In this document: positions 9,413-38,917 of the stretch, one piece after another
How positions within the stretch are numbered: position 1 is the first letter of the stretch
Layout: the number at the start of each line of letters is the position of its first letter
DNA from: Deltaproteobacteria bacterium
GTDB taxonomy: Bacteria; Myxococcota_A; UBA9160; SMWR01
Direction of reading: 5' to 3'
DNA length: 64,000 bases
NCBI GenBank assembly: GCA_032128375.1
Contig: JAQBGU010000135.1
Coordinates: 7,213 to 71,212, forward strand
Made by a program: the position numbers and the translations under genes
The notes under the pieces: model-generated
What the model saw: only the letters and a program-made list of their open reading frames with translations
The model's database searches: none
What the model was told of the DNA's origin: nothing

Positions 9413-9523
9413 TGGGTCGACTCAGGGCATCGCAGGAAGCGACCGGAGCGGAAGGTTGTGGGCATTCGGCCGGGAGAAACGATTAGACTCGGGCCGAGCG
9501 GGGCAGAGCATGGGTGAGCGAGC

Positions 9524-10351: not shown

Positions 10352-10427
10352 GGTTTCTTCCGTGTCGTCGCCTGCACGATGAAGCGCGAGGCTGTCTGGC
10401 CCCTCCCCACGCGAAATTGAGCTAGAT

Positions 10428-11399: not shown

Positions 11400-13516
11400 G
11401 CCGTTGGACGGTCGCGACCGCGATCGCCACGGCGCTGCTGTGGATCTCGCTGGGGACCCAGGCGTCACTGCCGACGCTGACCCGCGGCGCCGAGGATTGG
11501 TCTGGTGACTTCCGCTCCTACTACCTGCCCAACGCCGAGTTCGCGGCGAACCAGCTAGCGGAAGGACGCCTTCCGTTGTGGAATCCGTACCAGGGCGCGG
11601 GTGGGCCGTTCCTGGCGACGATCCAGCCGGGCGTCTTCTACCCGCCCAACTGGCTTCATCTGCTGCTGCCGTCTGCAACGGCATTCCTTGTGTTGATCGC
11701 ACTGCACCTGGCACTCGCGGTCGTGACCGCGAGCGCTCTTGCGCAACGCCTGGGCGCGTCGCCGATCGGTGGAGCAGTAGCGGGGCTGGCCTACGCGACA
11801 TCGTTTCAGCTGATTGGCAGCGTATGGACCCCACCGCTGGTTTACACTGCGTCGTGGATGCCGGCGGTGTTATTCGCTGTTGATCGGATCATCGATCGAC
11901 CCTCAGCGAAGTCGACGGCGCTGCTTGCGGCAGTGACCGCGCTTCCCGCGCTCGCGGGCTGGCCGTATACTCTGATGCTGACAGCACTGACCTGCGCGAT
12001 GTATGCAGCCACTCGCATGCTGATGGGGCTGGTGCGCGCGCGAGCGATTCCGTGGCGCGTGGGTGTTGCGCTTTCGGCCGGGGCGGCGATCGGCCTGCTG
12101 TTGGCGGCGCCGCAGTTGTACCCGGCATCGGAGTTGCTGGGGCGCAGTTGTCGCGCGTTGGGCTCGATCATCGAGGAGCAGGCCATCTTCGTGCCGGGTC
12201 CGCACGATCCGGAGATATTCATGAGAAGTATTCTCAGAAGCGGATTCAACGATGGCGTTCCGGGTTACGCGGCCTTGCTGCTTTCGCCCCTGGCGCTGTT
12301 GCTGCCGGGTCCACATCGGGGTCGCGTCGCGCTGCTGCTCGCCATCGGGGGCTTCGGGTTGCTCGCATCCTTCCCCGGCTCGGTTCCAGTCTACGGCTGG
12401 TTGCGGGAACTGCCCATTCTCGCTGATTTTCGATTTCCGTACCGGTACCGGCTGCTGTCGACGCTGGCACTCTCGATCGCCGCCGGCGTTGGCGCATCTC
12501 ACCTCCAGTACGCATTGCGCCGCTACTCACACGCTGGTTCCGCTGCTGGGGTAGTGGCGCTGATGGCTGCACTGGGATGGGGCAGCCTCCCGGTGCTGAA
12601 CACGGCAAGTCGCTTTGCGCGCGATTTCGGTCCGTCTCAATCGGTGGCCGAGCAGATCGCACAGATCGGTGCGGATTGGAAACCCGAGCCGTACGAGCGT
12701 GTCTACTGGACCGGTCGATCCCACAAGCTCCGCGATCCGAGCAACGTGTTCGTTGTCCACGACATGGAGCCGTTGACATTGGCGCGAACCGCACAATTGT
12801 TGACGTTCTTCGAAACCGGACGAGCCAGGACACTCCTCACGCTGAAGCCATCCAGCGATCCTCGCAAGAAGTACGAGGATTGGGTGGCAGCCCCGTTCTT
12901 CGGTTGGCTGAACCTTCCCGGTGACAGTGCACGGGCTGCGATCCTCGACGTGTTCTCGATCGGAACGATTGTCGACCGCGCGCCGCCGTATTGGCTGACC
13001 GACCGCTACGAGCGGATCTCGCCTGCCGGTGCCGAGTCGTCGGTCTTCCGCAACCCTCACGCGCTGCCCCGCGCGTACCGGGTCGCAGTTGCCATTGCGG
13101 AGCCGGCGAAGTTGGCGGACGCGTTGCGCCTGATGACATCGGAGCGTTTCAATCCACGCTCGATGGTGCTGTTGGACAACCCGCCCGCCCGGCTCTTGAC
13201 ACGCCGCCGCCCCGTGCCGTTCGACCCGAGCGGCGTCGAAATCGAACGCTATCTCCCAGATCGGGTCCGGCTGCAGACACGCGGCGCGACGGCGGCGATC
13301 GTCGTGCTGACCGACGCGCACTTCCCAGGCTGGACGGCGAGCTTGGATGGACAGCCGGTCGAGTTGTATCGGGCGAACGCGAATTTTCGCGGTGTTGCGG
13401 TCCCCGCCGGCGAACATGTGGTCGAGATGTACTACGCACCGCAATCATTGGCGTTCGGCAGCTGGCTGGCGGCGTTGGGCGCGCTTGGGATCGCGGTCGC
13501 GGTGTGGCGAAATTGA
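11396..13516 (+). CDS. YfhO-family membrane protein (GT-C-type glycosyltransferase)
   Basis: 706 aa and polytopic. The N-terminal region LAEGRLPLWNPYQGAGGPFLATIQPGVFYPPNWL is the YfhO-type signature as I know it. It is translationally coupled to the GT2 gene. Confidence 0.7.
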   Translation: MSRWTVATAIATALLWISLGTQASLPTLTRGAEDWSGDFRSYYLPNAEFAANQLAEGRLPLWNPYQGAGGPFLATIQPGVFYPPNWLHLLLPSATAFLVLIALHLALAVVTASALAQRLGASPIGGAVAGLAYATSFQLIGSVWTPPLVYTASWMPAVLFAVDRIIDRPSAKSTALLAAVTALPALAGWPYTLMLTALTCAMYAATRMLMGLVRARAIPWRVGVALSAGAAIGLLLAAPQLYPASELLGRSCRALGSIIEEQAIFVPGPHDPEIFMRSILRSGFNDGVPGYAALLLSPLALLLPGPHRGRVALLLAIGGFGLLASFPGSVPVYGWLRELPILADFRFPYRYRLLSTLALSIAAGVGASHLQYALRRYSHAGSAAGVVALMAALGWGSLPVLNTASRFARDFGPSQSVAEQIAQIGADWKPEPYERVYWTGRSHKLRDPSNVFVVHDMEPLTLARTAQLLTFFETGRARTLLTLKPSSDPRKKYEDWVAAPFFGWLNLPGDSARAAILDVFSIGTIVDRAPPYWLTDRYERISPAGAESSVFRNPHALPRAYRVAVAIAEPAKLADALRLMTSERFNPRSMVLLDNPPARLLTRRRPVPFDPSGVEIERYLPDRVRLQTRGATAAIVVLTDAHFPGWTASLDGQPVELYRANANFRGVAVPAGEHVVEMYYAPQSLAFGSWLAALGALGIAVAVWRN

Positions 13517-13591: not shown

Positions 13592-15133
13592 CTAGATGAT
13601 ACGCGACTTGCGATCGCCCCAGTAGCGGTCCTTCAGCAACCGCTTGTAGAGCTTTCCGGTTGGGTGCCGCGGAAGCTCGGCCTCGAAGTCGATCGAGCGC
13701 GGGCATTTGATCTTCGCCAGCTGGGACTTGCAATACTCCAATAACTCGGCCTCCAGTTCGGAGTTCGCGTCCGCCATGTCGATGGGTTGGACAACAGCCT
13801 TCACCTCTTCGCCGAAATCCTCGTTGGGAATGCCGAACACCGCGGCGTCTGCGACTTTGGGGTGCGTAATGAGAACGTTTTCTGCCTCCTGCGGGTAGAT
13901 GTTCACGCCGCCGGAGATGATCATGTTCGACTTGCGATCCGTCAGGAAGAGATAGCCCTCTTCGTCCAGGTAGCCGATGTCGCCCAGCGTGCTCCAGCCC
14001 TTGGCGTTCTGGGATTCCGCGGTCTTCTTCGAGTCTCCGTGGTATTCAAACTTTCCGCCACCTGCGAAGTAGATTCCACCCGGTGTCCCGATCGGCTGCT
14101 CCTCGCCGGCGTCATCGAGGATGTGAATTTCGCCAAGCAGCGCTCGGCCGACCGAACCCTTGTGGGTCATCCACTCGTCCGAGTTGATCGTGGTGAATCC
14201 GTTGCCTTCGGTGCCCGCGTAGTATTCGAACAATACAGGTCCCCACCAATCGATCATTTTTTCTTTTACCGGCACAGGGCAGGGGGCTGCGGCGTGGATC
14301 GCACTTTTCAGGCTCGACAAGTCGTGGAGCGCGCGCTGCTCGTCGCTGAGTTTGAACATCCGCACGAACATCGACGGCACCCATTGGCTGATAGTCACCT
14401 GGTGCGCTTCGATCAGGCGCAGTGCCTCCATCGCATCGAAGGACTCCATCAAAACGCAGGTCGCGCCGAGCCGCATCATCGCCATGTTGAAGCGCAACGG
14501 CGCCGCGTGATAGAAGGGGGCGGGTGACAGGTAGACGCTGTCCTGATCGGCTCCGTACAGGCCCTTCAGCAGTCCGAGCATCGCGGGTGCCGTACCGATC
14601 GGCTTGCCATCGAACGGGATCGAGACGCCTTTGGGGCGCCCTGTCGTTCCCGATGAATACAGCATGTCGTTGCCCTCGACTTCATCATCGATCGGCTCGG
14701 ACGGCTGCGCTGCGATGGTCTTTTCCCAATCGGGGTATGCATCGATCGAACCGCCAACCAGATAGCGGCCGTCCAGGCCGGACAGCGGTTCGCGCACCTG
14801 CTCGGCTACGTCGCGGAGCTGGTGCGACCCGACATACACGCGCGCGCCGCAATTCGTGACGATGTACTCGAGCTCGGATGCCGTCAGCCGCGAGCTGATC
14901 GCGGTGTAGATGATGCCGGAACGTTGCGCGGCCCAACAGATCTCGAAAAAGCGCGCGTTGTTTTCCATGTGGATCGCGATGTGGTCGCCCGCCTGCAGGC
15001 CGAGCGAGCGGAACAACTGGGCGCCGCGATTCGAAGCTTCGTCAAGCTGCCCGTACGTGATGGTCTCGCCGCTGGCGGCCATCCGATACGCGACCTTGTC
15101 GGGCAGTGTCTTGGCGAGTTCACCGGGATACAT
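13592..15133 (-). CDS. acyl-CoA synthetase / AMP-dependent ligase
   Basis: AMP-binding motif YSSGTTGRPKGV; the C-terminal region reads GDIGYLDEEGYLFLTDRKSNMIISGGVNIYP ... PRHPTGKLYKRLL. Confidence 0.92.
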   Translation of the reverse strand: MYPGELAKTLPDKVAYRMAASGETITYGQLDEASNRGAQLFRSLGLQAGDHIAIHMENNARFFEICWAAQRSGIIYTAISSRLTASELEYIVTNCGARVYVGSHQLRDVAEQVREPLSGLDGRYLVGGSIDAYPDWEKTIAAQPSEPIDDEVEGNDMLYSSGTTGRPKGVSIPFDGKPIGTAPAMLGLLKGLYGADQDSVYLSPAPFYHAAPLRFNMAMMRLGATCVLMESFDAMEALRLIEAHQVTISQWVPSMFVRMFKLSDEQRALHDLSSLKSAIHAAAPCPVPVKEKMIDWWGPVLFEYYAGTEGNGFTTINSDEWMTHKGSVGRALLGEIHILDDAGEEQPIGTPGGIYFAGGGKFEYHGDSKKTAESQNAKGWSTLGDIGYLDEEGYLFLTDRKSNMIISGGVNIYPQEAENVLITHPKVADAAVFGIPNEDFGEEVKAVVQPIDMADANSELEAELLEYCKSQLAKIKCPRSIDFEAELPRHPTGKLYKRLLKDRYWGDRKSRII

Positions 15134-15235
15134 GGGGCTCCTTCAGGTCGCCGCGCTGTGTGACGATGCATCGAGTTGCTTCGTCTCGCCGCTGCTCTCG
15201 CAACGGCAGGCCCGAGTCTAGATTCGATGAGCCCG

Positions 15236-16192
15236 TCACGCAGCGGGTGCTGGAAACAGCAGGTCGATCTGTGCGGTGAGCTGGCCGGGAATCGACAACC
15301 CCGAAGCCGCGACGTTTTCTTCGAGTTGACTCGTGTGCGTCACACCGACGATCGCGCTGGCGACATGCGGCTCCCGGAGACACCACGCGATCGCGAGTTG
15401 GGCCATCGAAACGTCCAGTTTTTCCGCGATCGCCGACAGCGCCTGGACACGTTCGAGGGCCGCGGGCTCTAGTAGATTCCTCATCCAGCCACTTCTTTCG
15501 GCATCGGCTGCCCGGCTGTTGGCCCCGCGCGCGCCACCGGAATACTTGCCGCTCAGCACTCCCTGGGCCAGTGGGCTGAAGACGATATGAGATAGCCCCT
15601 CGCGGACACAGGTGGCTGTCACGTCCGATTCGATGCCGCGCCTCAGGATTGAGTACTCGGGCTGACTGGAAACCGGTTGGAACGCGCCGTGGCGCTCCGC
15701 TGCGCGGCAGGCCTGTTCGATCTGTTTGCTCGTCCATTGGGAAACCCCCCAGTACAAGAGTTTCCCTTGGCGAATCAGGTCTTCGTATGCGCGGACGGTT
15801 TCGTCGATGGGCGTTGTCGGGTCCCAACGGTGGCATTGGTGGAGGTCCAGGTAGTCGACGCGAAGCCGGCGCAGCGACTCCTCCACGCTTTCGAACAGGT
15901 GCTTGCGCGACAGCCCGCGGTCGTTGGCGCGATCCGAGATCGGGAAGAAACACTTGCTGGCGATGACCAGGTGCCGTCGGGGGAGCCCCTCCAAAGCGCG
16001 GCCGAGCTCGATCTCGGCGGCGCCGTCGGCATAGACATCCGCGGTATCGAACAGGTTCACTCCCAGCTCGAACGCGCGCCGGACGATCTTGCGGCTGGCC
16101 TGAGAATCGAGCTTGGAGCCGAGCGTGAGCCACGACCCCAACCCGATTTCGCTAACCGCAAGTCCACTATGGCCGAGTCGTCGGTACTGCAC
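15236..16192 (-). CDS. aldo/keto reductase
   Basis: MQYRRLGHSGLAVSEIGLGSW ... AFELGVNLFDTADVYADG is the canonical AKR N-terminus. Confidence 0.92.
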   Translation of the reverse strand: MQYRRLGHSGLAVSEIGLGSWLTLGSKLDSQASRKIVRRAFELGVNLFDTADVYADGAAEIELGRALEGLPRRHLVIASKCFFPISDRANDRGLSRKHLFESVEESLRRLRVDYLDLHQCHRWDPTTPIDETVRAYEDLIRQGKLLYWGVSQWTSKQIEQACRAAERHGAFQPVSSQPEYSILRRGIESDVTATCVREGLSHIVFSPLAQGVLSGKYSGGARGANSRAADAERSGWMRNLLEPAALERVQALSAIAEKLDVSMAQLAIAWCLREPHVASAIVGVTHTSQLEENVAASGLSIPGQLTAQIDLLFPAPAA

Positions 16193-25223: not shown

Positions 25224-26237
25224 TCAGTCGAGGTTCGAGTGGGAACCCATCCGCCCGATTCCGACGGTCGCGCCAAAGCCCAGCGCGATCAGCGCCAGCG
25301 CTGATCCGGCCTCGCCCGCAGCAGGCGAGTACGCGACCTGGCGCCAGTCTTCGTGATCGATGCTCGCAAGGTTCTCGTCGGTGACGACCACACCCTTCAG
25401 GGTCTCACCTGCGACAGGAGCTTCAGCCCGTTGGAACGGCCACAGGCCCACGACTGCGCCGAGCAACAAGCCGAGCAGCGCACCCAGCGTCGCCTTGCGA
25501 TAGCGCAAGAGCAGCCACTTCAGCAGATTGCTGACCGCCACGACTCCCAACACAATCCCGATGCCCAGCGGAACGACGACCTTCATTGCGTCCAAAACGA
25601 GTGCGAGATCGCTGCCGGAGCCAGCGCCGTCGCCGAGCAGGCCCCGCTTCAGTTGATCGACGGTGCCGAGAATCGATTCGTATTGGCCCAGGATCAGCAG
25701 CAGGTAGCCGCCGCTGATTCCCGGCAGGATCATCGCAGAAGAAGCTGCCATGCCCGATAGGAAGATCAACGTCAGGCTGGCATCCTGCATCGAGCTGCCT
25801 GCTCCCCGGGTGAGCGTCATCAAAAGCATCAGAACGAAACCGCCTAGCGCGCCGAGTGCGAGCGAACCCGACATGGGGCGAGCCATTCGCCACACCAAGG
25901 GGACGCCACCGAGTGTCAACCCAATGAACAGGCTGTACATGATCCAGCGATGGTCGATGACGAGTCCCTTGACGGTTCCGGCGAGCAGCAGGATCGCAAG
26001 TGCCGCGCTGGCGACGATGGCTCCCAGCAGGATGATCGAGCGCGACCGAAAGCGCAGAGTGGTAACCTCGGCGATTCCCGAGATGAAGCCCGGGTAAACA
26101 CCAGCTGCCAACAACATCGTGCCGCCGCTGATTCCCGGCACCAGATTGGCGAGACCCATCAGAGTGCCACCGATCGCTCCGCGAACCAACAGCGAGAGCG
26201 GAGCGGTTTCGATGTCGTGGGATTCGGGCTCGTTCAT
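25224..26237 (-). CDS. DUF368 family membrane protein (polyprenyl-phosphate transporter family)
   Basis: The motif is duplicated: NLVPGISGGTMLLAAGVY and MILPGISGGYLLLILGQYE. The protein is polytopic. Start re-set to MNEPESHDIE (ATG 26237). Confidence 0.8.
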   Translation of the reverse strand: MNEPESHDIETAPLSLLVRGAIGGTLMGLANLVPGISGGTMLLAAGVYPGFISGIAEVTTLRFRSRSIILLGAIVASAALAILLLAGTVKGLVIDHRWIMYSLFIGLTLGGVPLVWRMARPMSGSLALGALGGFVLMLLMTLTRGAGSSMQDASLTLIFLSGMAASSAMILPGISGGYLLLILGQYESILGTVDQLKRGLLGDGAGSGSDLALVLDAMKVVVPLGIGIVLGVVAVSNLLKWLLLRYRKATLGALLGLLLGAVVGLWPFQRAEAPVAGETLKGVVVTDENLASIDHEDWRQVAYSPAAGEAGSALALIALGFGATVGIGRMGSHSNLD

Positions 26238-26353
26238 AGGGTCTCTCAGGCTGCTGTGTGTGCGCAGGACGCGGTACTGTAGCAGCGCATCGAGTGAGTG
26301 CATTCTCGAAAGCAGCAGATGTCCAGGGACATAGGAGCGTTGGGGGGACCGCC

Positions 26354-27061
26354 GTGTGCGGAAGATTCTCATTGATCGCCAATCCGGACGAATTGGCCGA
26401 ACACTTCAAGATCGACTTCGAGCCCGGTCTCGAATTCGCGCCAACGTGGGAACCTCGATTCAACGTCGCTCCCAGTCAGCCGGTCAAAACGGTGTATGTG
26501 CCGGACACGTCGGCGCAGCGCGCGGTCGTGGAACGGCGCTGGGGCCTGATCCCGTCGTGGGCGAAAGATCCGAAAATCGGCAACCGGCAAATCAACGCGC
26601 GCTCTGAAACGCTGGCCGAAAAGCCGGCGTTTCGGCAAGCGCTCGAGCAGCGACGCTGCCTGGTCGCCGCGGATGGCTTCTACGAGTGGTCGGGGCCGCC
26701 GCGTTCCAAACAGCCCTACTACATTGCGCTGGACGACCAGGCAATCTTCGGCTTCGCGGGACTCTGGGAGCGCTGGCGCAACCCCGAAGGCCTCGAAGTG
26801 GAAAGCTGCACGGTGATCACTGCGGCAGCCAATTCGCTGCTTGGCGAGCTGCATTCGCGCATGCCGGTGATCTTGGATCCCGAGCAATACGAGGCGTGGT
26901 TGGATCCGTCGAGTCAGACCGCGGCCGAGTTGCTGGCGCTGCTCCGTTCGCATCGTTGCGACGCGCTGCGCTACTACCCGGTGAGCTATCGCGTCAACAA
27001 CGTCGCATACGATGATCCCGCTTGCCTCGAACCGGTCGAAGCCCAGCCGACGCTATTTTGA
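26354..27061 (+). CDS. SOS response-associated peptidase (SRAP/YedK family)
   Basis: A GTG at 26354 gives the obligatory N-terminus M-CGRFSL (catalytic Cys2). The family motifs follow: RFNVAPSQ, WGLIPSWAKD, NARSET, RRCLVAADGFYEW. Confidence 0.88.
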   Translation: MCGRFSLIANPDELAEHFKIDFEPGLEFAPTWEPRFNVAPSQPVKTVYVPDTSAQRAVVERRWGLIPSWAKDPKIGNRQINARSETLAEKPAFRQALEQRRCLVAADGFYEWSGPPRSKQPYYIALDDQAIFGFAGLWERWRNPEGLEVESCTVITAAANSLLGELHSRMPVILDPEQYEAWLDPSSQTAAELLALLRSHRCDALRYYPVSYRVNNVAYDDPACLEPVEAQPTLF

Positions 27062-28955: not shown

Positions 28956-31154
28956 TCAACGTGTCTGTGGCGCCGGCAAATCGACGTACGCGCGGCCGGC
29001 GCGATAGTCCTCGAGGCGGCGCCGAATATCCTCGGCCAGATTCGCGTTCTGGTCGCTATCGGCGCTGATTGCGGCTTGCTCAGCAACCCGTGTCGCCTGT
29101 TCGAAATGCCCAGCGGTGGCGTGTGCGGCCGCCAACGTGTCCAGCAGATCCGCGCTGCGAACCTCGTGCGAAAGAGATTCCATAGCGAGCGCCAACGCCT
29201 CCTCGCCGTCCGCTCGGGTGGCACCGGGTCGCGTTGCGAGTAGCCAAGCCAGGTTATTGGATACCGGGTGCCAACCCGGTGAGAGCTCTAGCGCGATTCG
29301 ATAGTGCTCGATGGCTTCGCTCACCCGCCCGAGTTCGCTTGTCGCCTGTCCCAGCCCGAATTCAACCTCGATCGTATTCAATCCATTTCGCTGCGCGTCG
29401 GTCAGAAAGGTGAGCGCGCGCGCCGGTTCATTCATGCGCAACAGCACAAACCCGAGGTTGGCCGCAGCCTCCGCCCAGGCGGGCCGTGCGGCCAGCGCCA
29501 TCTCATACTCCGACACGGCTTGCTCTAGAGCTCCGGTTTGAGCCAGCGCTTGCCCCAGCAGCCCGTGCAGATGTGCGAACCCCACGTTTCGCTGCGCGCG
29601 TTGCGCCAGTCGCAGATGCTCGACGGCTTCCGCGCCGCGGTTGAGATCGATGAGTGCCGAGGCCAGGTTCGCGTGGGCGCGCGGGTGATTGGGCGCCAGG
29701 CGCAGCGCGGCCTGGTAATGGCCGATTGCCGCCTCGGGCTCATGGCGCGTCAGGAGCAAGTCGCCAAGCGTCACCCTGGGATCGGGCCAGCGGGGCTTGA
29801 TTCGAATCGCTTCGCGCACGTGGGCTTCCGCTGCGTCGAGATCGCCGGATTCGATCAGCTCCACGGCAAGACCGTTTTCGGCCAAGAAATTCTCTTGGGT
29901 GACAGCGATCGCCCGTTCATACAGCGCGAGCGAATCTCGCCAGTGCGCCAGCTGCGACCGCGTCGCGAAACTGAGCGAGATGATCGCAAGCAGCCCCGAA
30001 GCGATTCCGAGCCATCTCGGCAAGGGTGTCCACGCGACCATCATCGCGACCCCGATCAGGGGGAGATACATGTAGCGGTCAGCGCGTGCTTGCATGCCCG
30101 CTTGAACCACGCCGATCACGGGTACTAGCGTGATTGCGAACCACAACGAACCAACGAGTAGCTGCGGCCGCGAAGTTGCCAATCGAATGGCAACGCTGAA
30201 CGAGACCACCGACAACACCGCACCGACCCACCACTGGCTGGGTACTGCGAGCAGATGCGGATAAAAGACCGCGAGGTCGGTCGGCCAAAAACTCGCGAAC
30301 GCATACCAGCGATAGGAGTCGAGAGCAGTCGTCAGGCGCACCACCAGCGGCAGCAGGTCGCCGTGACTCATTGCGCCACTCTCGCGCTGAACCGCGAGTG
30401 TGACGACACTCGCTGCAACGGCGAGTGCGATCAGCGGAAGTTTATCGAGTACCGCGTCCATCAACGCCGCGCTTTCTGGCCGGCCGAGGCTCCCGTCCCG
30501 ACGCAGTCTGCGCGCCGGCCAATAGTCGAGTAGAAAGAGCGCGAGCGGCAGGGTTACGACCACGGGCTTGGCGAGCAGGCCCAGAGCAAAGCACACCAGC
30601 AGCGCGACATACCGCAGGCGCCTACCACCACCCGGTGGAGCGCGCAGATAACTCGCGTATGCCCACATCGATAGCATCCAGAACAAGCCGCTCAACGTGT
30701 CCTTGCGCTCGGTCGCCCACGCCACCGATTCGACATGCAGTGGATGAACCGCGAAGACCAGCGCAACGAACGCGCTCGGACCGCGGGTGCCACTGAGTCG
30801 AGTGAGCGCGAGAAACAGCACGGCGCTGCTCACCGCATGCAGTCCGACATTGGTCAGATGGTGGCCGGTGGGTTCGAATCCGTAGCACAGGACATCGAGA
30901 TGGAGCGAAAGCCACGTCAACGGAATCCAGTTGGCCTCATACGGTGTCGAGAACGCCTGCCACACCCGCTCCCAATCGAGCGCGCTGCGTAGCTGCGGAT
31001 TCTCGACGATGTAGATGAGGTCGTCGTAGCTGACGAACGCGTGGTGTCGGACTGGCCAGTACAAGACCAGCGGCAACAGCGCGACGGCCATTGCAAGCAG
31101 CAGGTCGCGGTACGAGAGGCTGGCTGAATCAAAGCAGTCGGCGTGTGATGTCAC
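28956..31154 (-). CDS. TPR-repeat membrane protein, PMT/TMTC-like (N-terminal GT-C-like membrane domain plus C-terminal TPR array)
   Basis: The N-terminus reads LYWPVRHHAFVSYDDLIYIVENPQLRS, followed by about 10 TM segments. The C-terminal TPR repeats include AIGHYQAALRLAPNHPRAHANLASALIDL. A GTG at 31154 overlaps the upstream gene's stop (GTGA); the tracked 812-aa ORF is over-extended. Confidence 0.75.
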   Translation of the reverse strand: MTSHADCFDSASLSYRDLLLAMAVALLPLVLYWPVRHHAFVSYDDLIYIVENPQLRSALDWERVWQAFSTPYEANWIPLTWLSLHLDVLCYGFEPTGHHLTNVGLHAVSSAVLFLALTRLSGTRGPSAFVALVFAVHPLHVESVAWATERKDTLSGLFWMLSMWAYASYLRAPPGGGRRLRYVALLVCFALGLLAKPVVVTLPLALFLLDYWPARRLRRDGSLGRPESAALMDAVLDKLPLIALAVAASVVTLAVQRESGAMSHGDLLPLVVRLTTALDSYRWYAFASFWPTDLAVFYPHLLAVPSQWWVGAVLSVVSFSVAIRLATSRPQLLVGSLWFAITLVPVIGVVQAGMQARADRYMYLPLIGVAMMVAWTPLPRWLGIASGLLAIISLSFATRSQLAHWRDSLALYERAIAVTQENFLAENGLAVELIESGDLDAAEAHVREAIRIKPRWPDPRVTLGDLLLTRHEPEAAIGHYQAALRLAPNHPRAHANLASALIDLNRGAEAVEHLRLAQRAQRNVGFAHLHGLLGQALAQTGALEQAVSEYEMALAARPAWAEAAANLGFVLLRMNEPARALTFLTDAQRNGLNTIEVEFGLGQATSELGRVSEAIEHYRIALELSPGWHPVSNNLAWLLATRPGATRADGEEALALAMESLSHEVRSADLLDTLAAAHATAGHFEQATRVAEQAAISADSDQNANLAEDIRRRLEDYRAGRAYVDLPAPQTR

Positions 31155-32587
31155 TCCGCTTCCGATTGGCCGTCTGCGCCTGTGGCGCTGTCTTGTGCCT
31201 TCTCCTCCAGATAGCCGAGCGCGTGGAGTTGTTGCTGTTCGTCCCTGGAGAGCCGTTGGCGCAGTTCCGGGTGTCCAGGCTGCAGATTGTTTCGAAACCA
31301 CTCGAGTTTGGCGCGCAGTCTGTCGTGGATATCCGGTGCATCGAAGCGGCGCTCGGGGCCGTCGGGCGGGAGATGGTAGAGCTCGGTCTTCCACTGGGAA
31401 CCGACTCGCGTCAGTACGAGTTTATTCGGGCCCTCGACAATTCCGAAGCGTTTCCCCGTTCCGGAATCGAGTGTTGTCAGGTAGGGCTCGCTGGGTTGCC
31501 GCTGTTCCCTCGGAAGCATCAGGTCGCGGCCATCCGCATCGCTGGGCGCACCGATCGTCAGACCCAGTAGTGTCGGGTACAAATCGATCAGACTCGCGAT
31601 ATCCAAGCGAATTTCAGGTTCGACACCGGGCGCGCGAATCGCCAATGGGACCCGGACGAGCGGGTCAGAGAGGCGCTCGCCGTGCGCGAACCAATAGTTC
31701 TGCTCGCCGAGCGACTCACCGTGGTCCGCGGTAAACACGACCACGCAATTCTGTTTCGAGTAGTGCTCCTCCAGGGCTGTCAACAACCGGCCGACCTCCT
31801 CATCGAGGTATGCGATCTCACCGTCGTAGCCCGCACGATAGAATGCGACGCCGCGCGCGTCGCCGATTTGCTGATACCTGGGCAGCAACCCGCGACCGCC
31901 GCGACCGGTCCGTTCGGGGAGAACGCGGTCGCCATCAGGCGCAGTGCGCTCTACGGCGAGAAAACGCTCGCGATAGCCGTCCGGGGGTGTGTAGGGGCCG
32001 TGCGGGTCCTGATAGTGAACCCACAAAAAGGATCGGACGCTGGGATCCTTGAACCATCCGTCCATCACCGCGATCGCCGCATCTGTGGTGCTCGAGGCGA
32101 TCCGTTCGGGCCAGTGTCGCGTGACTTCGGTCTGGGGGAGAGCATCGTCGTAGTGGTCGAAACCGACGGCGAGGCCCGAATTGCGACGCAGTACGAAATT
32201 GCTGACCACGGCGGCTGTCCGCCAACCGTTGTCGTGGAGCACAGAAGCCAAAGTGGGAATCGTGGACCGTAAGGCGGAGCGATTGCTGACGATTCCGAGT
32301 TCTTCGGGATACTTCCCCGTCATCAACGAACTGACCGAAGGCAGTGTGTACGGCGCCGGCGCATACACGCGGCTGAAATACTGGCCTTCGGCGGCCAGCG
32401 CATCGATGTGGGGGGTGAGTCCCAGTGTGCTGCCGCCCGCACCGATGCGGTCGGCACGCAGCGTGTCCACGGTGATCAGGATCAACACGCGAGGCGCGGG
32501 GGAACCGAACCCACAGCAGAACGAAACGATTGAGAGCGCCACGCAAACGGCGGCGCACAGTGTCTGAAGTTCGGGCCGGCGTCGCAT
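31151..32587 (-). CDS. sulfatase-fold (alkaline phosphatase superfamily) protein with Thr at the nucleophile position
   Basis: LILITVDTLRADRIG matches the metal-binding N-terminal motif. At the sulfatase signature position the sequence is PYTLPSVSSLMTG instead of C/S-x-P-x-R. The start is set at MRRRPELQTLCAAVCVALSIV (ATG 32587). Confidence 0.8.
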   Translation of the reverse strand: MRRRPELQTLCAAVCVALSIVSFCCGFGSPAPRVLILITVDTLRADRIGAGGSTLGLTPHIDALAAEGQYFSRVYAPAPYTLPSVSSLMTGKYPEELGIVSNRSALRSTIPTLASVLHDNGWRTAAVVSNFVLRRNSGLAVGFDHYDDALPQTEVTRHWPERIASSTTDAAIAVMDGWFKDPSVRSFLWVHYQDPHGPYTPPDGYRERFLAVERTAPDGDRVLPERTGRGGRGLLPRYQQIGDARGVAFYRAGYDGEIAYLDEEVGRLLTALEEHYSKQNCVVVFTADHGESLGEQNYWFAHGERLSDPLVRVPLAIRAPGVEPEIRLDIASLIDLYPTLLGLTIGAPSDADGRDLMLPREQRQPSEPYLTTLDSGTGKRFGIVEGPNKLVLTRVGSQWKTELYHLPPDGPERRFDAPDIHDRLRAKLEWFRNNLQPGHPELRQRLSRDEQQQLHALGYLEEKAQDSATGADGQSEAE

Positions 32588-32826
32588 CACGGGTCGGAAA
32601 GCAGCGTAGCACGAGGGGACGAGACCGAAGCCGGATAGCGGAGGACTGAGAATGGTTGGTCGAAATCCCGGCGCGCGAGCCGGGCCCGTTCCCGGCCCGA
32701 GGGTTCGGGTGTGTTCGTGGGTTCGGCACAGCCACTGGTAAAAGTCGGGTCGCGGGGTTCGGTCTTGGGTTCTGCTGCTAAGCTCCGTCCGGCGCGCATG
32801 GTTGTTATCAATATGAAGGGGACCTG

Positions 32827-33615
32827 ATGGCTCAATCGATAACTCGTTCGTCCCGACTGGCTGTGACCACGCTGATGGTCGCATTGCTCGGGACCGGATG
32901 CACGGTGATCGAGGACGGCGAGGTGGGGGTATCGAAGAGCTTTGGCGCGATTTCCGATACGCCGGTCGGACAGGGCATCGTGATTCAGGTCCCGGTGGTT
33001 CGCACGGTCGAGACCTGGAACGTGAAGCTGCAGGAACTGAAGGAGACCGCGCAGGTGCCGTCTTCTGAGGGCCTGATCGTCGGTCTCGATACGTCGCTGC
33101 TGTTTCGGGTTACGCCCGATAGAGCGCCCCAGATCCGCAAGACCATCGGGATCAACTATGTCGAGGGCTTGATTCGGCCGTACTTTCGCAGCGCGCTGCG
33201 CGATACCGTCAGTGGATACCCGGTCAAGACGGTGTATACCGAAGCGGGCCGCAAGGAGATCGCAGCCAGTATCAAGAATTTTCTGATGGACAGCATGGCC
33301 AAGGAAGGCATCACCATCGTCGATGTGCTGCTGCGCGACGTCAAGCTTCCCACGCGCTTCAAGGAGAGTATCGAGGCGAAGCTGACCGCAGAGCAACGCG
33401 TCCAGCAGAAGCAGTTCGAACTCGAACAGGCCGTGAAGGATGCCGAGATCGAAGTGGCACGCGCGAAGGGTGCGGCGCAGGCCCAGGAGATCGTTCGGTC
33501 GACTCTATCGGATTCTTATCTGCAGTATCTGTGGATCAAGACGCTGAACGAGAATCCGAATGTCATCTACGTCGCGACCGAGGCCAACCTGCCGCTGTTC
33601 AAGCAGTCGAAATAG
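32827..33615 (+). CDS. SPFH/band-7 (prohibitin-like) domain lipoprotein
   Basis: Lipobox LLGTGC, then EDGEVGVSKSFGAI ... VETWNVKLQE ... SSEGL.VGLDTSLLFRV and a C-terminal coiled coil. Confidence 0.85.
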   Translation: MAQSITRSSRLAVTTLMVALLGTGCTVIEDGEVGVSKSFGAISDTPVGQGIVIQVPVVRTVETWNVKLQELKETAQVPSSEGLIVGLDTSLLFRVTPDRAPQIRKTIGINYVEGLIRPYFRSALRDTVSGYPVKTVYTEAGRKEIAASIKNFLMDSMAKEGITIVDVLLRDVKLPTRFKESIEAKLTAEQRVQQKQFELEQAVKDAEIEVARAKGAAQAQEIVRSTLSDSYLQYLWIKTLNENPNVIYVATEANLPLFKQSK

Positions 33616-33818: not shown

Positions 33819-35198
33819 CTAGTCCCGTCGGCGCATCAGATAGAGAACCCGGTCCGACCCCGGAATCGGCGTTCGATCCTCGGTTTCGAAACGGCGAGCG
33901 AATGCGGCTTCGAAATCCTGTGGGGTGTAGTTGTCGAACACGTCGGTTCGGTTCGCGAGCAGCAGCTGTGCCTTCGGGTCACTCTTGGGCACGAACTCGA
34001 TGATCAGCCGGCCGGACAGACGCGCGAACCAATCGGCGACGCGGCTCAGCGGCACGTTGTTCGAAATGGCCAGGTGGTGAATCAACGCGAGAGCCATGAC
34101 CAGGTCCGCTGGACCCCGATCGACGAGCGACGCGCGCTCCTCGTGTGCCCAGCCGAGGCTCGGGCTGGGATTCGAAAGGTCGAGTAGTAGCGGCAGCAAA
34201 CGCGTCTCACGTTCACGTCGCATCTTGCGATAATTGCGGTCGACACACGCAGGGTCGACATCGAACGCCAGCGTCAGCATTCCGCGCTGGGCCGCGAGCC
34301 GGCTGTATTCGCCGGTATTCGCGCCCAGGTCCCACACACTCGCCGGCTGTGCGCGATCGAGGTAAGTCGCGACGATCTGGTGCTTCTGCTCTTCGGCCGC
34401 TTCGGAATAGCTATCGCCTTCGTAGTAGTCGGCCCATTCGGTTCCCGCGGCATCCCAGCGGAGCTTTTCGACGGCTGTCTCGAGCGCTGTCAGCAGGTTC
34501 GCCAGTGATTTCTTCGGAACGGGTCGAACCGTCACTTTCTCGGTCGCTGTCTGGTAGCGATTCTGGTAGCCCGCGTGCATTCGGATGTGCATGAATAAGT
34601 GGATATTGAGCCAGGCACGCCGGGGCAGCAGCGTACGCGCGAGATCGAGCGGTATGCCGTCGAGGTTCACACGCAGCAATTTCGCGAGCCGAATGTCGCA
34701 ATAAGACATCAGCGCCAGCGGCGCCAGAAAATGTTGGCAGAACTGGCGGTATCCGACCCAGGGAGTATCTGGCTGGTAGATTTCGAACGACAACGTATCG
34801 ATGAACACGGGTGCGCCGCGGTGGAACTGGACATTGTAGGCACTAGCGTCCTTCAGCGTCATTCCGAACCGAAGAGCCGCGTGTTGGATCTGTAGTGTCA
34901 GCAGTGCCGCCGCTCGGAGTTGGCTGAACGACCACTCGTACGGGTAGGACACGAAGTCCACCCGTTCGGGTTTCAAGGTGAGGTAGTCGTCGAGCTCGAC
35001 GTCCGGTTCCGGCTCGTCGACGCTCTGGTGCGGAATCAACAGCCTGCGTTCGACCAACTCATCGTACAGCCCTGATTTCATCAGGCATTCGTAATCGTCG
35101 GCGTAGCTGCGCCGGACTCGCCGGAACAACTCACCGTCGCGCTCGAACAGATACCCGCTGGGATCGCGAAAGGACGCGCCCAGGGAGCGTTCATTCAT
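33819..35198 (-). CDS. SAM-dependent methyltransferase (NoeA-like family)
   Basis: The N-terminus is FRDPSGYLFERDGELFRRV, and the C-terminal half carries VWDLGANTGEYSRLAAQRGMLTLAFDVDP (motif I). Confidence 0.75.
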   Translation of the reverse strand: MNERSLGASFRDPSGYLFERDGELFRRVRRSYADDYECLMKSGLYDELVERRLLIPHQSVDEPEPDVELDDYLTLKPERVDFVSYPYEWSFSQLRAAALLTLQIQHAALRFGMTLKDASAYNVQFHRGAPVFIDTLSFEIYQPDTPWVGYRQFCQHFLAPLALMSYCDIRLAKLLRVNLDGIPLDLARTLLPRRAWLNIHLFMHIRMHAGYQNRYQTATEKVTVRPVPKKSLANLLTALETAVEKLRWDAAGTEWADYYEGDSYSEAAEEQKHQIVATYLDRAQPASVWDLGANTGEYSRLAAQRGMLTLAFDVDPACVDRNYRKMRRERETRLLPLLLDLSNPSPSLGWAHEERASLVDRGPADLVMALALIHHLAISNNVPLSRVADWFARLSGRLIIEFVPKSDPKAQLLLANRTDVFDNYTPQDFEAAFARRFETEDRTPIPGSDRVLYLMRRRD

Positions 35199-35660: not shown

Positions 35661-37964
35661 ATGACGAAGAGCGCGGATCGGACAGGGCAGGGGTCGCGCA
35701 TCGGCGCGATGGTGGGATTGTTCGCGGCGGCCATCGCTGTTCGCGCGCTACCAGCGCCGACTGTTCTGCTCGGCGATCGCGTTCAGCCGTTTGGCGGCGA
35801 CGCGTTCTACCACCTGCGCCGAATCGCGTATTCGATCGAGCAATTCCCTCATGTACTCGAATTCGATCGCTACGTGAACTTCCCGACAGGCGCGATTGCG
35901 ATCTGGACACCGGTTTTCGACTGGCTGATCGCCGCGCTGGCGATCTGCCTCCGAGCCGAGCCGGCATCCCTCGAGATGGAACGAATCGCGGTCTGGGTTC
36001 CGCCGGTTCTTGGAGCAGCGACCGTCGTGGTGCTGTATCGACTGGCGGCGCGCACCTTTGGCGAGCCGATCGGGCGCACGGCTGGTGCGCTTTTGTGCAT
36101 CAGTTCCGCGCACTTCTGGTACTCGCAGATCGGCTTCGTCGACCATCACGTTGCGGTCGCGCTCGTCACTACGCTGCTGCTGGGTCGCGCGATCGCGTAC
36201 CTGGACGCGCAGTCGGAACCTGCCCCGGCATGGCCGTTGGGGCTCGCGCTCGGCGCAGCATTGTGGATCTGGCCCGGTACGCTACTTCACGTCGGCATCA
36301 TCGAAGCCGCACTGCTGATCGCGCTCTTGACGGAGGCCGACGCATCCGCGGCCGCTGCACGGCGTTTCACAAACGTGCAGTGCATTGCACTGCTGTTGAT
36401 GCTGCCCTCCGGTGTCACAAACAGCTGGCCGCAATGGGGGGCCTTCAGCCCGGTCGTGCTCTCACTGTTTCAGCCCTGGCTATTCGCCACATTGACACTG
36501 TTTGGGTTCGGGTGCAGCGCACTGTGGCTCCACACGCGGCTCGGCGCGTCCGTCGGGAGGCGCGCACTCAGCGCTGCAGCAATCGGCTTCACATTGTTGC
36601 TGTGTAGCCTTCTTGCGATTCCAGAATTGTGGATCGGTGCGCACGATGCGTGGCAGTGGTTCGGAAAGACGGAGGTTTTTCAGGCCCTCGTCAGTGAATC
36701 ATTGCCTCTGTTGGAGCTCGATGGCGATTTCAGCACCCAGGTGGCCTCGAGTCGCCTGTCCTACTTCGTATTTCTGTCTCCGATCGCGCTGCTCTGGGCG
36801 GCGACCAGCGCCTGGCGAGGAGAACGTGAGCGCGGACGATTGTTGCTGGTCGGCTGGACCGCGGTGCTGCTGGCCGCGACGCTGTGGCAGAAGCGCTTCT
36901 TCAATACCTCCTCGGTCGGCCTGGCTCTGCTGATGGCATGGACACTAGCCGGCGTACATCGCGCATGGACCGCGCGAGCGGGTGGCCACTCGCGGCTCGC
37001 GAGCGCGGTCGTCGTATCTGTCACCGCGCTGCTGTTGCTTCCGAGCGTCGCGAGTTTTCGCGGCTTCCTGCCGAACTGGCGCGGCGACGGTACGATCGCA
37101 GGTTCTCGCCTGCAACTCGCGCAGAATGTCGCGATTGCGACTTCGGAATATCTGCGTCGAGAAACCCCGACGACTTCCGGATGGCTGGACGCCGATGCTT
37201 GGCCCGAGTATTCCGTGATGGGTCCGTGGCCGATCGGGCACGTGATCGAATACGTCGGACGCCGACCGACAGTGACTGACGGATTCGGCGACGACCTGGG
37301 GCCCGAGAACTTCGAACGAGCGGCACGTTACTATGCTGCTGAAGAGCCAGAGGCACTCGCGATCGCAGAACGACTCGGTGTTCGGTATGTAATCGCGCAG
37401 CGCAGCGCAACTTTTCTGGGGAGAGAACCCGGCGCCGCCAGTATGCTGACCGCTTTGTTTGTTCGCGATGGGTCTGAGAGGCCGCTCCCTTCGACCCGAG
37501 ATGCCGGCGCTATTGCACCACCTTCGCCGACGACCTTCCCGGCACTGCATCGCCACCGGCTCATCTACGAATCCGCGCCTCCCGGAGAACGGAGTCCCGA
37601 GCGCGAGTCGTTGTTCAAGCTGTTCGAGATCGTGGTTGGGGCCGAGATCGTGGGTCGCGCGACGCCTGGTGGGCGTGTAAGCGCCGCTGTGGAGCTGAAG
37701 ACGAATCGGAAACGCGATTATCTCTATTTCACGAGCACGACTGTTCGGGAAGATGGCGGCTACACGCTACGCCTCCCGTATGCCAATGGAGGGCCAAACA
37801 AGCGCGGTGTCGTCGGGGTAGGCATGCATTACACGATCGCGTGTGGGGATGCGAAGCGTCCCATCGGCGTGACGGAGCGCGACGTTCAGTCCGGAGCGAA
37901 GCTCCGCGTACCGGAACTGGACTGTCAGTCAGGAATGAAAAAGAGCGATGCTTGGACGCAATAA
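35661..37964 (+). CDS. STT3/AglB-like oligosaccharyltransferase-family membrane protein (divergent)
   Basis: The first loop FGGDAFYHLRRIAYSIEQFP resembles the archaeal AglB D-x-YYHLR motif. There are about 13 TM segments and then a soluble C-terminal domain. At the WWDYG position the sequence reads MGPWPIGHVIEYVGRRPTVTDGFG. Confidence 0.6.
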   Translation: MTKSADRTGQGSRIGAMVGLFAAAIAVRALPAPTVLLGDRVQPFGGDAFYHLRRIAYSIEQFPHVLEFDRYVNFPTGAIAIWTPVFDWLIAALAICLRAEPASLEMERIAVWVPPVLGAATVVVLYRLAARTFGEPIGRTAGALLCISSAHFWYSQIGFVDHHVAVALVTTLLLGRAIAYLDAQSEPAPAWPLGLALGAALWIWPGTLLHVGIIEAALLIALLTEADASAAAARRFTNVQCIALLLMLPSGVTNSWPQWGAFSPVVLSLFQPWLFATLTLFGFGCSALWLHTRLGASVGRRALSAAAIGFTLLLCSLLAIPELWIGAHDAWQWFGKTEVFQALVSESLPLLELDGDFSTQVASSRLSYFVFLSPIALLWAATSAWRGERERGRLLLVGWTAVLLAATLWQKRFFNTSSVGLALLMAWTLAGVHRAWTARAGGHSRLASAVVVSVTALLLLPSVASFRGFLPNWRGDGTIAGSRLQLAQNVAIATSEYLRRETPTTSGWLDADAWPEYSVMGPWPIGHVIEYVGRRPTVTDGFGDDLGPENFERAARYYAAEEPEALAIAERLGVRYVIAQRSATFLGREPGAASMLTALFVRDGSERPLPSTRDAGAIAPPSPTTFPALHRHRLIYESAPPGERSPERESLFKLFEIVVGAEIVGRATPGGRVSAAVELKTNRKRDYLYFTSTTVREDGGYTLRLPYANGGPNKRGVVGVGMHYTIACGDAKRPIGVTERDVQSGAKLRVPELDCQSGMKKSDAWTQ

Positions 37965-38197: not shown

Positions 38198-38286
38198 GCT
38201 CCACGACAAGAGCAAACCCGGCGAGAGCCGGGGACGCAAAGCCAGTGCCCAGCCTCGGGAATCCGAGTCGGGTCGAACGGCTGCCG
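38198..38286 (+). promoter_or_regulatory. c-di-GMP-I (GEMM-I) riboswitch-like aptamer
   Basis: CCACGACAAGAGCAAACC-[CGGC GAGA GCCG hairpin, GNRA loop]-GGGACGCAAAGCC-[second hairpin CUCGG GAAU CCGAG with extended stem]. This parallels the V. cholerae Vc2 aptamer as I recall it (CACGCACAGGGCAAACC-AUUCGAAAGAGU-GGGACGCAAAGCC...). It ends immediately before the AAAGGAG RBS of the 38300 gene. Confidence 0.75.
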
Positions 38287-38299
38287 AAAGGAGTTGTGC

Positions 38300-38917
38300 A
38301 TGACCGCTCCCCGTCGACTGACAACCGCTTTCCTCGTCGCGGCGATCTCCGTGGCTTCCTGTGGTGCCACGCCTTTCGCTGAACTGGCGAGTACGAGCGA
38401 GAATCCTCCGCTCGGTTATTCGCCATCCGCGCTCAGCGGGGACGCGCTCGCTGCGTCTCGTGTGTTGGGAGGGCTGAACACCGGGTTGCTTCCCGATGAA
38501 GTCGCGAGGCTCGGCGTCGCAATCGTCATGGAGTCGCGACGAGCTGGGATTCCGATGGAGTTGGTGCTGGCGCTGATCCAGGTCGAAAGTAGTGGCAACG
38601 CCTTCGCGGTGTCCGGTGTCGGCGCGATCGGGCTCATGCAGCTTCGCCCGAGCACGGCCGAGGAAGTCGCTGGCCGACTCGGAATCCGCTGGATGGGCGC
38701 TGCAACATTGTTCGAGCCGGTGACGAACGTTCGGCTGGGCGTCGAGTATCTCCGCCAATTGATCGAGCACTACGACAGCGTTTCGATCGCACTCGCCGCC
38801 TACAACTGGGGGCCGGGAACGATCGGGAAGAGGCTGCGGCTGGGCGAAGCGATCCCGGCCGGCTACTCGGATAAAGTCATGGCAAAATATCGCCGACCCC
38901 TGCACCGCGCGATCTAG
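38300..38917 (+). CDS. lytic transglycosylase (SLT domain) lipoprotein
   Basis: Lipobox SVASC. Catalytic motif LIQVESSGNAFAVSGVGAIGLMQL ... AYNWGPG. The ATG at 38300 is 6 nt after AAAGGAG. Confidence 0.9.
   Translation: MTAPRRLTTAFLVAAISVASCGATPFAELASTSENPPLGYSPSALSGDALAASRVLGGLNTGLLPDEVARLGVAIVMESRRAGIPMELVLALIQVESSGNAFAVSGVGAIGLMQLRPSTAEEVAGRLGIRWMGAATLFEPVTNVRLGVEYLRQLIEHYDSVSIALAAYNWGPGTIGKRLRLGEAIPAGYSDKVMAKYRRPLHRAI

Follow-up and report, generated by a model that had tools for sequence, protein, structure and literature searches.

An AglB-like GT-C protein encoded in a Deltaproteobacteria genome retains the catalytic site of the STT3 superfamily but appears to have lost the sequon-reading pocket

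The stretch of DNA analyzed here (64,000 nucleotides of contig JAQBGU010000135.1, assembly GCA_032128375.1, from a Deltaproteobacteria bacterium; hereafter the window, with positions counted from its first letter) harbors a single gene whose product is a genuine homolog of AglB, the archaeal oligosaccharyltransferase (OST) of the STT3 superfamily. We consider it probable (roughly 0.6) that this product is an active, periplasm-facing glycosyltransferase of the C fold (GT-C), derived from AglB, which uses a polyprenyl-phosphate-linked sugar donor and an acceptor other than the canonical N-X-S/T sequon. A preliminary description of the window, made from its letters alone, had placed an open reading frame (ORF) of 767 amino acids on the plus strand at exactly the coordinates given in Table 1 and had considered its product to be STT3/AglB-like and of archaeal type, an assignment which is upheld by the sequence, profile, and fold evidence presented below.

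Homology to archaeal AglB

The likeness of the window protein to AglB is far beyond that expected by chance. A phmmer search against the sequences of the PDB returned AglB-L of Archaeoglobus fulgidus (AfAglB; 3WAJ/5GMY) with an E value of 4.7e-17, covering residues 40 to 580 and 650 to 749. A family profile built from 46 members matched the same protein with an E value of 1.4e-56 and human STT3A with an E value of only 9e-4, and PglB was absent from the PDB matches of this profile at E values of up to 0.01. Three Pfam models were matched above their gathering scores, namely, AglB_L1 (2.7e-16), STT3 (1.8e-9), and AglB_core-like (5.9e-7), the first two of which (PF18079 and PF02516) are those with which the preliminary description had proposed to check its assignment. 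The closest model overall is that of NCBIfam TIGR04154 (archaeo_STT3, the archaeosortase A-associated OST), to which the window protein aligned with 312.5 bits (E value of 6.7e-93) but below the 450-bit cutoff, and of which it is, hence, not a member. Comparison of the bacterial family with a profile of five AglBs (from Methanosarcinales, Methanocella, Methanothrix, and Nanoarchaeia) by means of hhalign gave a probability of 100 and an E value of 5.2e-86 over 702 columns.

Similar outputs were obtained at the level of the predicted fold. The AlphaFold2 model computed from the family alignment (mean predicted local distance difference test score [pLDDT] of 92; predicted template modeling score [pTM] of 0.92) displays a helix pattern which fits 13 transmembrane helices, the number typical of the STT3/AglB/PglB architecture (PMC8342417), followed by a globular C-terminal domain. 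When this model was used as a Foldseek query, AfAglB ranked first (7E9S; E value of 1.4e-32; template modeling score [TM-score] of 0.79), followed by eukaryotic STT3A/B (TM-score of approximately 0.6), DPY19 (approximately 0.53), PglB (approximately 0.5), and ArnT/AftA (approximately 0.35). The STT3-like run of transmembrane helices and the C-terminal soluble domain, both of which had previously been read from the translated sequence, are thereby borne out. The ORF is intact and present as a single copy, a search of the 64,000 nucleotides for a second copy having returned none.

Conservation of the catalytic and donor sites

The roles of individual residues were taken from the structural study of AfAglB by Taguchi et al. 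(2021; PMC8342417), in which Asp47, Asp161, and His163 are metal ligands, His162 lies near the metal site, Glu360 forms part of the TIXE motif of external loop 5, which pairs with the sequon backbone, and Arg426 and His81 are located at the phosphate site. Conservation was counted over the window protein's 120 best relatives in the database (39 to 100% identity), aligned with MAFFT, and all counts out of 120 given below refer to this alignment.

Each of these elements, with the exception of His81 (see below), has a conserved counterpart. The first external-loop motif (residues 45 to 54), together with the EQFP which follows it (residues 45 to 63 in all), aligns to G44-G-N-D47-PWYYYR...NFP of AfAglB, which confirms the archaeal-type first loop noted previously, and D47, Y50, H51, R53, and R54 are each present in 119 relatives, the remaining sequence being gapped at these positions. 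D161 and H163 of the second DXD motif are invariant and H162 is found in 119 of the 120. The first position of the TIXE-like motif is variable, with V344 being retained in 119 relatives and E346, as well as the adjacent S347, in all. Q410, R412, and F413 are likewise invariant, as is W204, which aligns to AfAglB Trp215, a residue that we take to belong to the phosphate site. Since the catalytic residues are near-invariant and 108 alignment columns are conserved to at least 93%, the pattern is that of an enzyme under selection rather than of a decaying paralog.

Loss of the Ser/Thr pocket

STT3-family N-glycosylation is defined across all domains of life by the N-X-S/T sequon, the reading of which depends on two signature elements: the WWD of the WWDYG motif binds the +2 Ser/Thr, and the Lys or Ile of the DK or MI motif completes the pocket. 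In the window protein, the position of WWDYG is occupied by GPWPIGH (residues 521 to 527), with P524 standing in place of the Asp that contacts the +2 Ser/Thr. The same reading had been made in the preliminary description, which considered the acidic sequon-contacting residue to be missing, and both the alignments and the column counts sustain it: Pro is present at the first position of the motif in 105 relatives and Trp at the second in 116, followed by a free position, Leu or Ile, and a Gly and His which are each found in all 120. Of all columns of the motif, this free position (524) varies most (Pro in 26, Glu in 21, Gly in 17, Ser in 12, Tyr in 12, His in 9, Thr in 8, and Asp in 7 sequences), and WWDxG was present in none of the 120 relatives. 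A clean WWDYG motif which might have been overlooked elsewhere in the window protein can be discounted, as a search of its sequence for WW, WWD, and W.D.G returned none of these.

The second element has been lost as well. According to Matsumoto et al. (2013; PMC3703281), AfAglB carries a variant DK motif, composed of Glu613 and Lys618 with four residues between them, in a kinked helix just past the strand VKYVVSD. The equivalent strand of the window protein reads VRYVIAQ, ending at residue 580, and the in-register residues S582 and G587 are variable within the family and never predominantly Lys. The hhalign output places two deletions of approximately 17 residues each in the bacterial family where archaeal AglBs read '..TDxEMIxxKFxSIA..', and the AlphaFold2 model contains a confident coil at residues 581 to 594. 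As judged from the alignments and the model, the archaeal helix segment which carries the DK Lys is deleted in the bacterial family. Because WWD is changed to P-W-P and the DK Lys segment is deleted, both signature elements for recognition of the +2 Ser/Thr are missing, of which only the first had been recognized previously, and the loss is family-wide rather than a one-off decay.

Directly past the degenerate WWDYG lies a motif which is specific to the bacterial family, RRPTVTDGFGDD in the window protein. Within it, R535, F542, G543, and D545 are invariant, and P536 and D544 are found in 119 and 113 of the 120 relatives, respectively; archaeal relatives read NNFQ at the position of FGDD. This register is presumably that of the DGGK of PglB, if the PglB numbering which we assume is correct. 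G543 aligns to AfAglB Gln571, which is listed as being 'close to the peptide site' (PMC8342417). With a near-invariant R-P...F-G-D-D at what used to be the peptide-site position, as judged by sequence register, the part of the active site that faces the acceptor and the donor glycan looks rebuilt and not merely eroded.

Distribution and paralogs

To place the window gene within its family, one genome per GTDB species was scanned, and of the 159 relatives found, 78 loci were kept (loci are denoted by L numbers below). Nearly all hosts are metagenome-assembled genomes (MAGs) labeled Myxococcota, 'Deltaproteobacteria', or Myxococcales, together with a few Planctomycetota or Phycisphaerae and some bins labeled Spirochaetales; a Myxococcota MAG encodes the closest relative that bears a name (81% identity), and the archaeal AglBs in the scan displayed 24 to 26% identity. 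An exhaustive profile search of 1.84 billion representatives clustered at 50% identity returned 2039 matches at E values of up to 1e-30, archaeal AglBs included, the best 150 of which all had E values below 1e-149. Among 130 new 50%-identity representatives, WWD was present in only 1.

The motif position itself varies considerably across the family. Archaeal sequences read WWDYGN, with the exception of L081 (SWSYGN), and basal bacterial and Planctomycetota sequences read IWDYGN, WWDLGH, or FWDLGH, while those of Myxococcota read PWx[LIM]GH (the clade of the window protein), [AP]WGDGH, RWGEGH, PWGYGH, SWD[YH]GH, or DWS[TSD]GH. In a rough neighbor-joining tree rooted on archaea, the sequences which retain WWD are basal. 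In one Myxococcota subclade (L015, L017, and L021), the remaining Trp is lost too, the motif reading LPGIGH, MPGVGH, or DVGIGH.

Several MAGs encode two to four paralogs, as exemplified by OC6_3000m_MAG_334 (L024, L041, L042, and L043) and MFD05684.bin.2.192, which has three, and paralogs within one genome differ at the WWDYG position (e.g., PWGYGH, FWTHGH, HWQYGH, and AWGDGH). Further within-genome sets are L027/L039/L067, L016/L023, and L057/L059. According to a published rule, the STT3/AglB paralogs of one organism share one type of Ser/Thr pocket (PMC3703281), a rule which does not hold for the AglB-like paralogs considered here. The window gene belongs to one clade of a large AglB-derived radiation in uncultured Myxococcota and a few Planctomycetota. 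A literature search on AglB, STT3, GT66, and WWDYG in Myxococcota, Planctomycetes, and Deltaproteobacteria returned no description of such a bacterial family, and Lombard (2016) records no more than a small number of bacterial homologs falling inside the clade of Euryarchaeota.

Genomic neighborhood

Comparative context was drawn from homologous loci, an exact-sequence look-up of the window protein among contigs having returned no record. The window is syntenic with L001, the AglB-like protein of which is 51% identical. The shared gene order comprises a DUF368/PopT-like polyprenyl-phosphate transporter, SRAP, SSF, TPR, a 'sulfatase', Band_7, and the AglB-like gene, past which follow SLT, AF_1845, FKBP, two amidohydrolases, UvrD, MutS2, and PNPOx. 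L001 additionally encodes a PMT_2 protein between the 'sulfatase' and Band_7, and the window additionally carries a gene pair specifying a 459-amino-acid protein with a methyltransferase domain and a membrane protein of approximately 81 amino acids. A fuller arrangement, sulfatase(-), PMT_2(+), Band_7(+), [459-aa + small](-), PMT_2(+), 467-aa(-), PMT_2(-), AglB-like(+), is present in the same-clade loci L003/L008, L069, L018, L010, L048, L058, and L082, and PMT_2 genes adjoin the AglB-like gene in all of these as well as in L001 and L005. In L005, a PMT and a DUF2142 gene lie beside the AglB-like paralog, with a glycosyltransferase family 2 (GT2) gene and a methyltransferase gene located 8 kb away. 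When 81 genes neighboring the AglB-like gene at 19 loci of other paralog clades were tallied by Pfam family, PMT_2 proved the most frequent (4 members), with GT2, Band_7, and methyltransferases represented by 2 members each, and no phosphoglycosyltransferase, Wzx, or GT4 family occurred among the 25 most frequent families of this tally. Genes for building a lipid-linked oligosaccharide (LLO) of the pgl type were likewise absent from the Pfam-scanned parts of the window (7.7 to 16.9, 19 to 33.6, and 38 to 52 kb) and from L001 to L006, and no LLO operon was present near any of the approximately 25 loci examined. PMT_2 and GtrB-type GT2 genes thus recur and LLO families do not, such that the AglB-like gene is recurrently accompanied by GT-C enzymes of the periplasm and by a synthase of lipid-monophosphate sugars rather than by a pgl-type LLO pathway.

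Within the window, a lipid-monophosphate sugar donor might be supplied by the GtrB-type GT2 encoded 24 kb upstream of the AglB-like gene, a 61%-identical ortholog of which is the GT2 located 8 kb from the L005 paralog; the donor of AfAglB is itself of the monophosphate type. This GT2 gene is clustered at 7712-13516 (plus strand) with genes for a 566-amino-acid membrane protein, a methyltransferase, and a YfhO-like membrane protein, a cluster which looks like a three-component periplasmic glycosylation system. The 566-amino-acid protein is 37% identical to the product of a gene near the L005 AglB-like paralog.

Further features of this neighborhood were noted. The DUF368/PopT-like transporter gene (25224-26372, minus strand; Pfam VCA0040-like, 9e-41; NCBIfam PopT below its cutoff) occupies the same place in L001 and L082. 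The 'sulfatase'-family gene (31151-32884, minus strand) specifies T-L-P-S-V (in YTLPSVSSLMTG) instead of the C/S-x-P-x-R formylglycine motif, and its product, a member of the alkaline-phosphatase superfamily, more likely acts as a phosphotransferase or phosphodiesterase with a Thr nucleophile; since the longest ORF overlaps the start of Band_7, its real start is probably located further downstream. In L003, the AglB-like gene is followed, 2.6 kb further downstream, by a short exosortase gene of the EpsH family (14970-15614, plus strand), echoing the archaeosortase association of TIGR04154. A link to exosortases was nonetheless dismissed as coincidental: the window has MutS2 at that place, and the EpsH query matched only L003, L004, and L008, in each case the same protein (P0012).

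The genes which immediately flank the AglB-like gene are as the preliminary description had them, i.e., a divergently transcribed pair for a methyltransferase and a small membrane protein on one side and a riboswitch-controlled SLT gene on the other. The small membrane protein, the first gene product of the conserved two-gene operon, has no Pfam or NCBIfam match. All structural matches of the 459-amino-acid protein are confined to its C-terminal domain, and a WbdD-like kinase-methyltransferase was considered and dropped, as WbdD matches by virtue of the methyltransferase domain alone. The family of this protein is very large, extremely abundant in metagenomes, and highly conserved (at least 8000 matches, the top 120 at 57 to 100% identity), and its gene is always preceded by one for a small membrane protein of approximately 81 to 99 amino acids, the operon being found also at L003 3331-4987, L085 7745-9401, and L087 7724-9470. 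It adjoins the AglB-like gene in L085/L086 and stands alone in L087; the pair is an independent module which is often but not always linked to the AglB-like gene. On the downstream side, the riboswitch, of the cyclic di-GMP (c-di-GMP)-I class, is situated directly upstream of SLT and is kept in four relatives (L001 12464-12553, L007 4810-4907, L010 8551-8644, and L018 12579-12665). Because SLT has its own riboswitch, conserved in these relatives, it is regarded as a unit of its own within a syntenic backbone that is conserved, and functional coupling to the AglB-like gene was rejected. Judging from this arrangement, a peptidoglycan-cleaving enzyme may be controlled by c-di-GMP in this Myxococcota lineage.

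Table 1. Features of the window discussed in the text
Feature	Position	Strand	Evidence or remark
GtrB/ArnC/PgfS-type GT2, polyprenyl-phosphate sugar synthase	10428-11399	+	5EKP, 1.8e-74; ArnC, 2.6e-47
706-aa membrane protein, putative GT-C partner of the GT2	11396-13516	+	C-terminal YfhO match (PF09586, 2.8e-11)
459-aa protein	33819-35198	-	C-terminal ~190 aa, class I S-adenosylmethionine-dependent methyltransferase domain; N-terminal ~270 aa without fold match
Small single-pass membrane protein, ~81 aa	35191-35436	-	Motif YVDPGAGS; first gene of two-gene operon divergent from AglB-like gene
AglB-like (STT3 superfamily) GT-C glycosyltransferase gene	35661-37964	+	ATG start, 767 aa; ~13 transmembrane helices, C-terminal CC + P1 globular domain
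First external-loop motif GGDAFYHLRR	35793-35822	+	D47 (35799-35801) = AfAglB Asp47, metal ligand of first DXD
Second DXD motif D161-H162-H163	36141-36149	+	Same sequence and numbering as AfAglB Asp161-His162-His163
TIXE-like L343-V344-S345-E346, external loop 5	36687-36698	+	Aligns to AfAglB T357-I358-A359-E360
Q410-K411-R412-F413	36888-36899	+	R412 = AfAglB Arg426, lipid-phosphate site
P522-W523-P524-I525-G526, degenerate WWDYG counterpart	37224-37238	+	Column for column with AfAglB W550-W551-D552-Y553-G554
Bacterial-family-specific motif	37260-37295	+	R534-R535-P536-x-V-x-(D/N)-N-F542-G543-D544-D545
Q580-G587, stretch matching AfAglB variant DK motif (E613...K618)	37398-37421	+	No Lys
AglB_L1, P1 peripheral beta-rich unit of C-terminal domain	37638-37898	+	PF18079, 2.7e-16; aligned to AfAglB 753-865
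c-di-GMP-I riboswitch aptamer	38201-38288	+	61 bits (gathering score, 35); upstream of SLT
SLT-domain lytic transglycosylase gene	38294-38917	+	PF01464, 8.4e-27

Proposed function and alternative explanations

We propose that the window protein descends from a euryarchaeal AglB-type OST and that, because the metal site (D47, D161, and H163), the loop-5 Glu (E346), and the lipid-phosphate Arg (R412) are kept, a polyprenyl-phosphate-linked donor would still supply a sugar or short glycan. The sequon-reading pocket has been dismantled through the change of WWD to P-W-x (with x free), the deletion of the DK Lys segment, and the presence of FGDD at the former peptide-site position, and because of this dismantling the acceptor is presumed not to be the canonical N-X-S/T. 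The acceptor could instead be an envelope molecule that is not a protein, or else a protein site with a different set of defining features, of which the protein site is somewhat favored because the TIXE-like loop and the CC domain are retained. On the basis of genomic association alone, the enzyme would probably take part in stepwise periplasmic glycosylation alongside PMT_2-type GT-Cs and a GtrB-type synthase. A parallel exists in Haloferax: once AglB has acted, mannose is added by the GT-C enzyme AglS from dolichyl-phosphate mannose (Dol-P-Man) made by the GT2 AglD.

A number of observations weigh against this proposal. Asp or Glu is present at position 524 in 28 of the 120 relatives (approximately 23%), and some Ser/Thr contact may, therefore, persist in some family members. 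AfAglB His81 corresponds to Ile81 in the window protein, for which reason donor binding may differ too. As D47 and E346 are required for any reaction at the metal site, their conservation discriminates neither a protein from a non-protein acceptor nor transfer from hydrolysis. That FGDD lies near the acceptor site is deduced from the alignment register which it shares with Gln571 of AfAglB. The AglB-like gene of the window has no PMT_2 gene adjoining it and the GT2 gene is 24 kb away, such that the pathway link draws on other genomes and on lineage synteny, which can persist without functional coupling.

Of the two readings offered in the preliminary description, that of an OST relative which acts on another acceptor is favored by the family-wide loss of the pocket, the missing DK segment, and the FGDD motif, while that of a non-catalytic paralog, i.e., a scaffold or pseudo-enzyme, is given almost no weight here: the loss of WWDYG and DK is all that would speak for it, and it is at odds with metal-binding and catalytic residues which are invariant across relatives as distant as 39% identity, with the 108 highly conserved columns, and with an intact ORF whose fold is confidently predicted. 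A conventional N-OST acting on N-X-S/T, in which the +2 hydroxyl is read by other residues (e.g., W523, H527, or D544/D545), appears unlikely, despite the conserved TIXE-like V-x-E, whose AfAglB counterpart pairs with the sequon backbone, the retention of W523, G526, and H527, the acidic residue at position 524 in a minority of relatives, and the WWDLG, FWDLG, or IWDYG kept by basal bacterial relatives. Against it stand the loss from WWD of both its Asp and its first Trp, an Asp column which is unconstrained in the orthologous group, the absence of an LLO assembly operon near the loci examined, and the deletion, with its helix segment, of a DK Lys whose substitution is lethal in yeast STT3 and lowers the activity of PfAglB (PMC3703281).

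Hydrolysis of a lipid-linked glycan, with water as the acceptor and the release of free periplasmic oligosaccharides, would account for an intact catalytic and donor site next to a dismantled acceptor pocket, and AfAglB does hydrolyze LLO in vitro (PMC8342417); such an enzyme would, however, need neither an invariant FGDD, a conserved loop 5, nor two to four paralogs per genome with distinct pocket motifs, and in view also of the lack of a nearby LLO operon, we regard this explanation as highly improbable. The release of free oligosaccharides is otherwise familiar as a side reaction of Campylobacter PglB. Glycosylation or ligation of an envelope glycan or lipid (lipopolysaccharide- or lipid A-like, periplasmic glucan, or exopolysaccharide) is a doubtful but conceivable alternative. 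It would be in keeping with the recurrence of the gene beside PMT_2 GT-Cs, alkaline-phosphatase superfamily ('sulfatase') periplasmic enzymes, and the SLT gene, with the GtrB- and YfhO-like genes within the window, with the loss of a peptide-specific pocket, and with the weaker fold resemblance to ArnT and AftA, enzymes such as ArnT and YfhO using the same donor chemistry as would be involved here. The PMT_2 neighborhood is, however, non-discriminating, because the family includes protein O-mannosyltransferases; the closest structural relatives (AglB, STT3, DPY19, and PglB) all modify proteins; and the elements which hold the peptide in OSTs, namely, the TIXE-like motif of loop 5 and the CC domain, are retained and highly conserved.

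Significance

Because the two defining motifs, WWDYG and DK/MI, were looked for and neither was found, the window protein should not be filed as an N-oligosaccharyltransferase but as a variant within the STT3/AglB superfamily. With less conviction than is attached to the window protein itself, we tentatively suggest that the Myxococcota/Planctomycetota AglB-like radiation, with its hundreds of 50%-identity clusters and its two to four paralogs per genome differing mainly at the former WWD pocket, may constitute a new functional class, in which each paralog, fed by polyprenyl-monophosphate donors, glycosylates a different non-sequon acceptor. Its products could represent a new bacterial protein glycosylation (on Asn without a +2 Ser/Thr, or on another residue) or a modification of envelope glycans. 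A large, conserved bacterial offshoot which keeps the chemistry while its sequon reader is dismantled would show how acceptor specificity can be rewired in the STT3 superfamily. Should the targets be proteins, bacterial protein glycosylation would have a wider range than is currently known, and enzymes free of the sequon constraint might become available for glyco-engineering; if they are envelope glycans, an STT3-derived branch would be added to bacterial cell-surface biosynthesis.

Comparison with known systems

Among bacterial systems, the proposed donor logic and the recurrent neighbors are those of the PMT_2, ArnT, and YfhO GT-Cs which are fed by a GtrB-type GT2 in three-component systems, the fold of which is, however, distant (TM-score of 0.35 for ArnT) and which lack the CC/P1 domain and the TIXE loop of AglB. 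DPY19 C-mannosyltransferases (PDB 7ZLG-7ZLI) set a precedent in combining an STT3-like GT-C fold with the absence of WWDYG, and they use a lipid-monophosphate monosaccharide donor (Dol-P-Man) and a non-Asn protein acceptor, but they are eukaryotic, possess a different luminal domain, and share no specific sequence relationship with the window protein. With Campylobacter PglB (PDB 3RCE, 5OGL, and 6GXC) the window protein has in common a single-subunit, periplasm-facing bacterial fold of the STT3 superfamily and the DXD and TIXE logic; PglB is, nevertheless, far more distant than AfAglB (Foldseek E values of 1e-9 to 2e-8), and it is encoded within a pgl LLO operon and contains the MI motif as well as WWDYG and DGGK, none of which applies to the window protein. 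Even AfAglB differs in several respects: in the window protein, PWPIG replaces WWDYG, the variant DK motif (E613...K618) is missing along with its helix segment, Gln571 has given way to FGDD and His81 to Ile, the host is bacterial, and the polypeptide is approximately 100 residues shorter, the stretch between the CC strand and P1 being much reduced. It is, nonetheless, AfAglB-L (PDB 3WAJ, 5GMY, and 7E9S), together with the Methanosarcinales-type AglBs of TIGR04154, which provides the best sequence, profile, and fold match, and with which the window protein shares the first-loop D47, an identical D161-H162-H163, a TIXE-like Glu, the Arg of QxRF, and the CC and P1 units.

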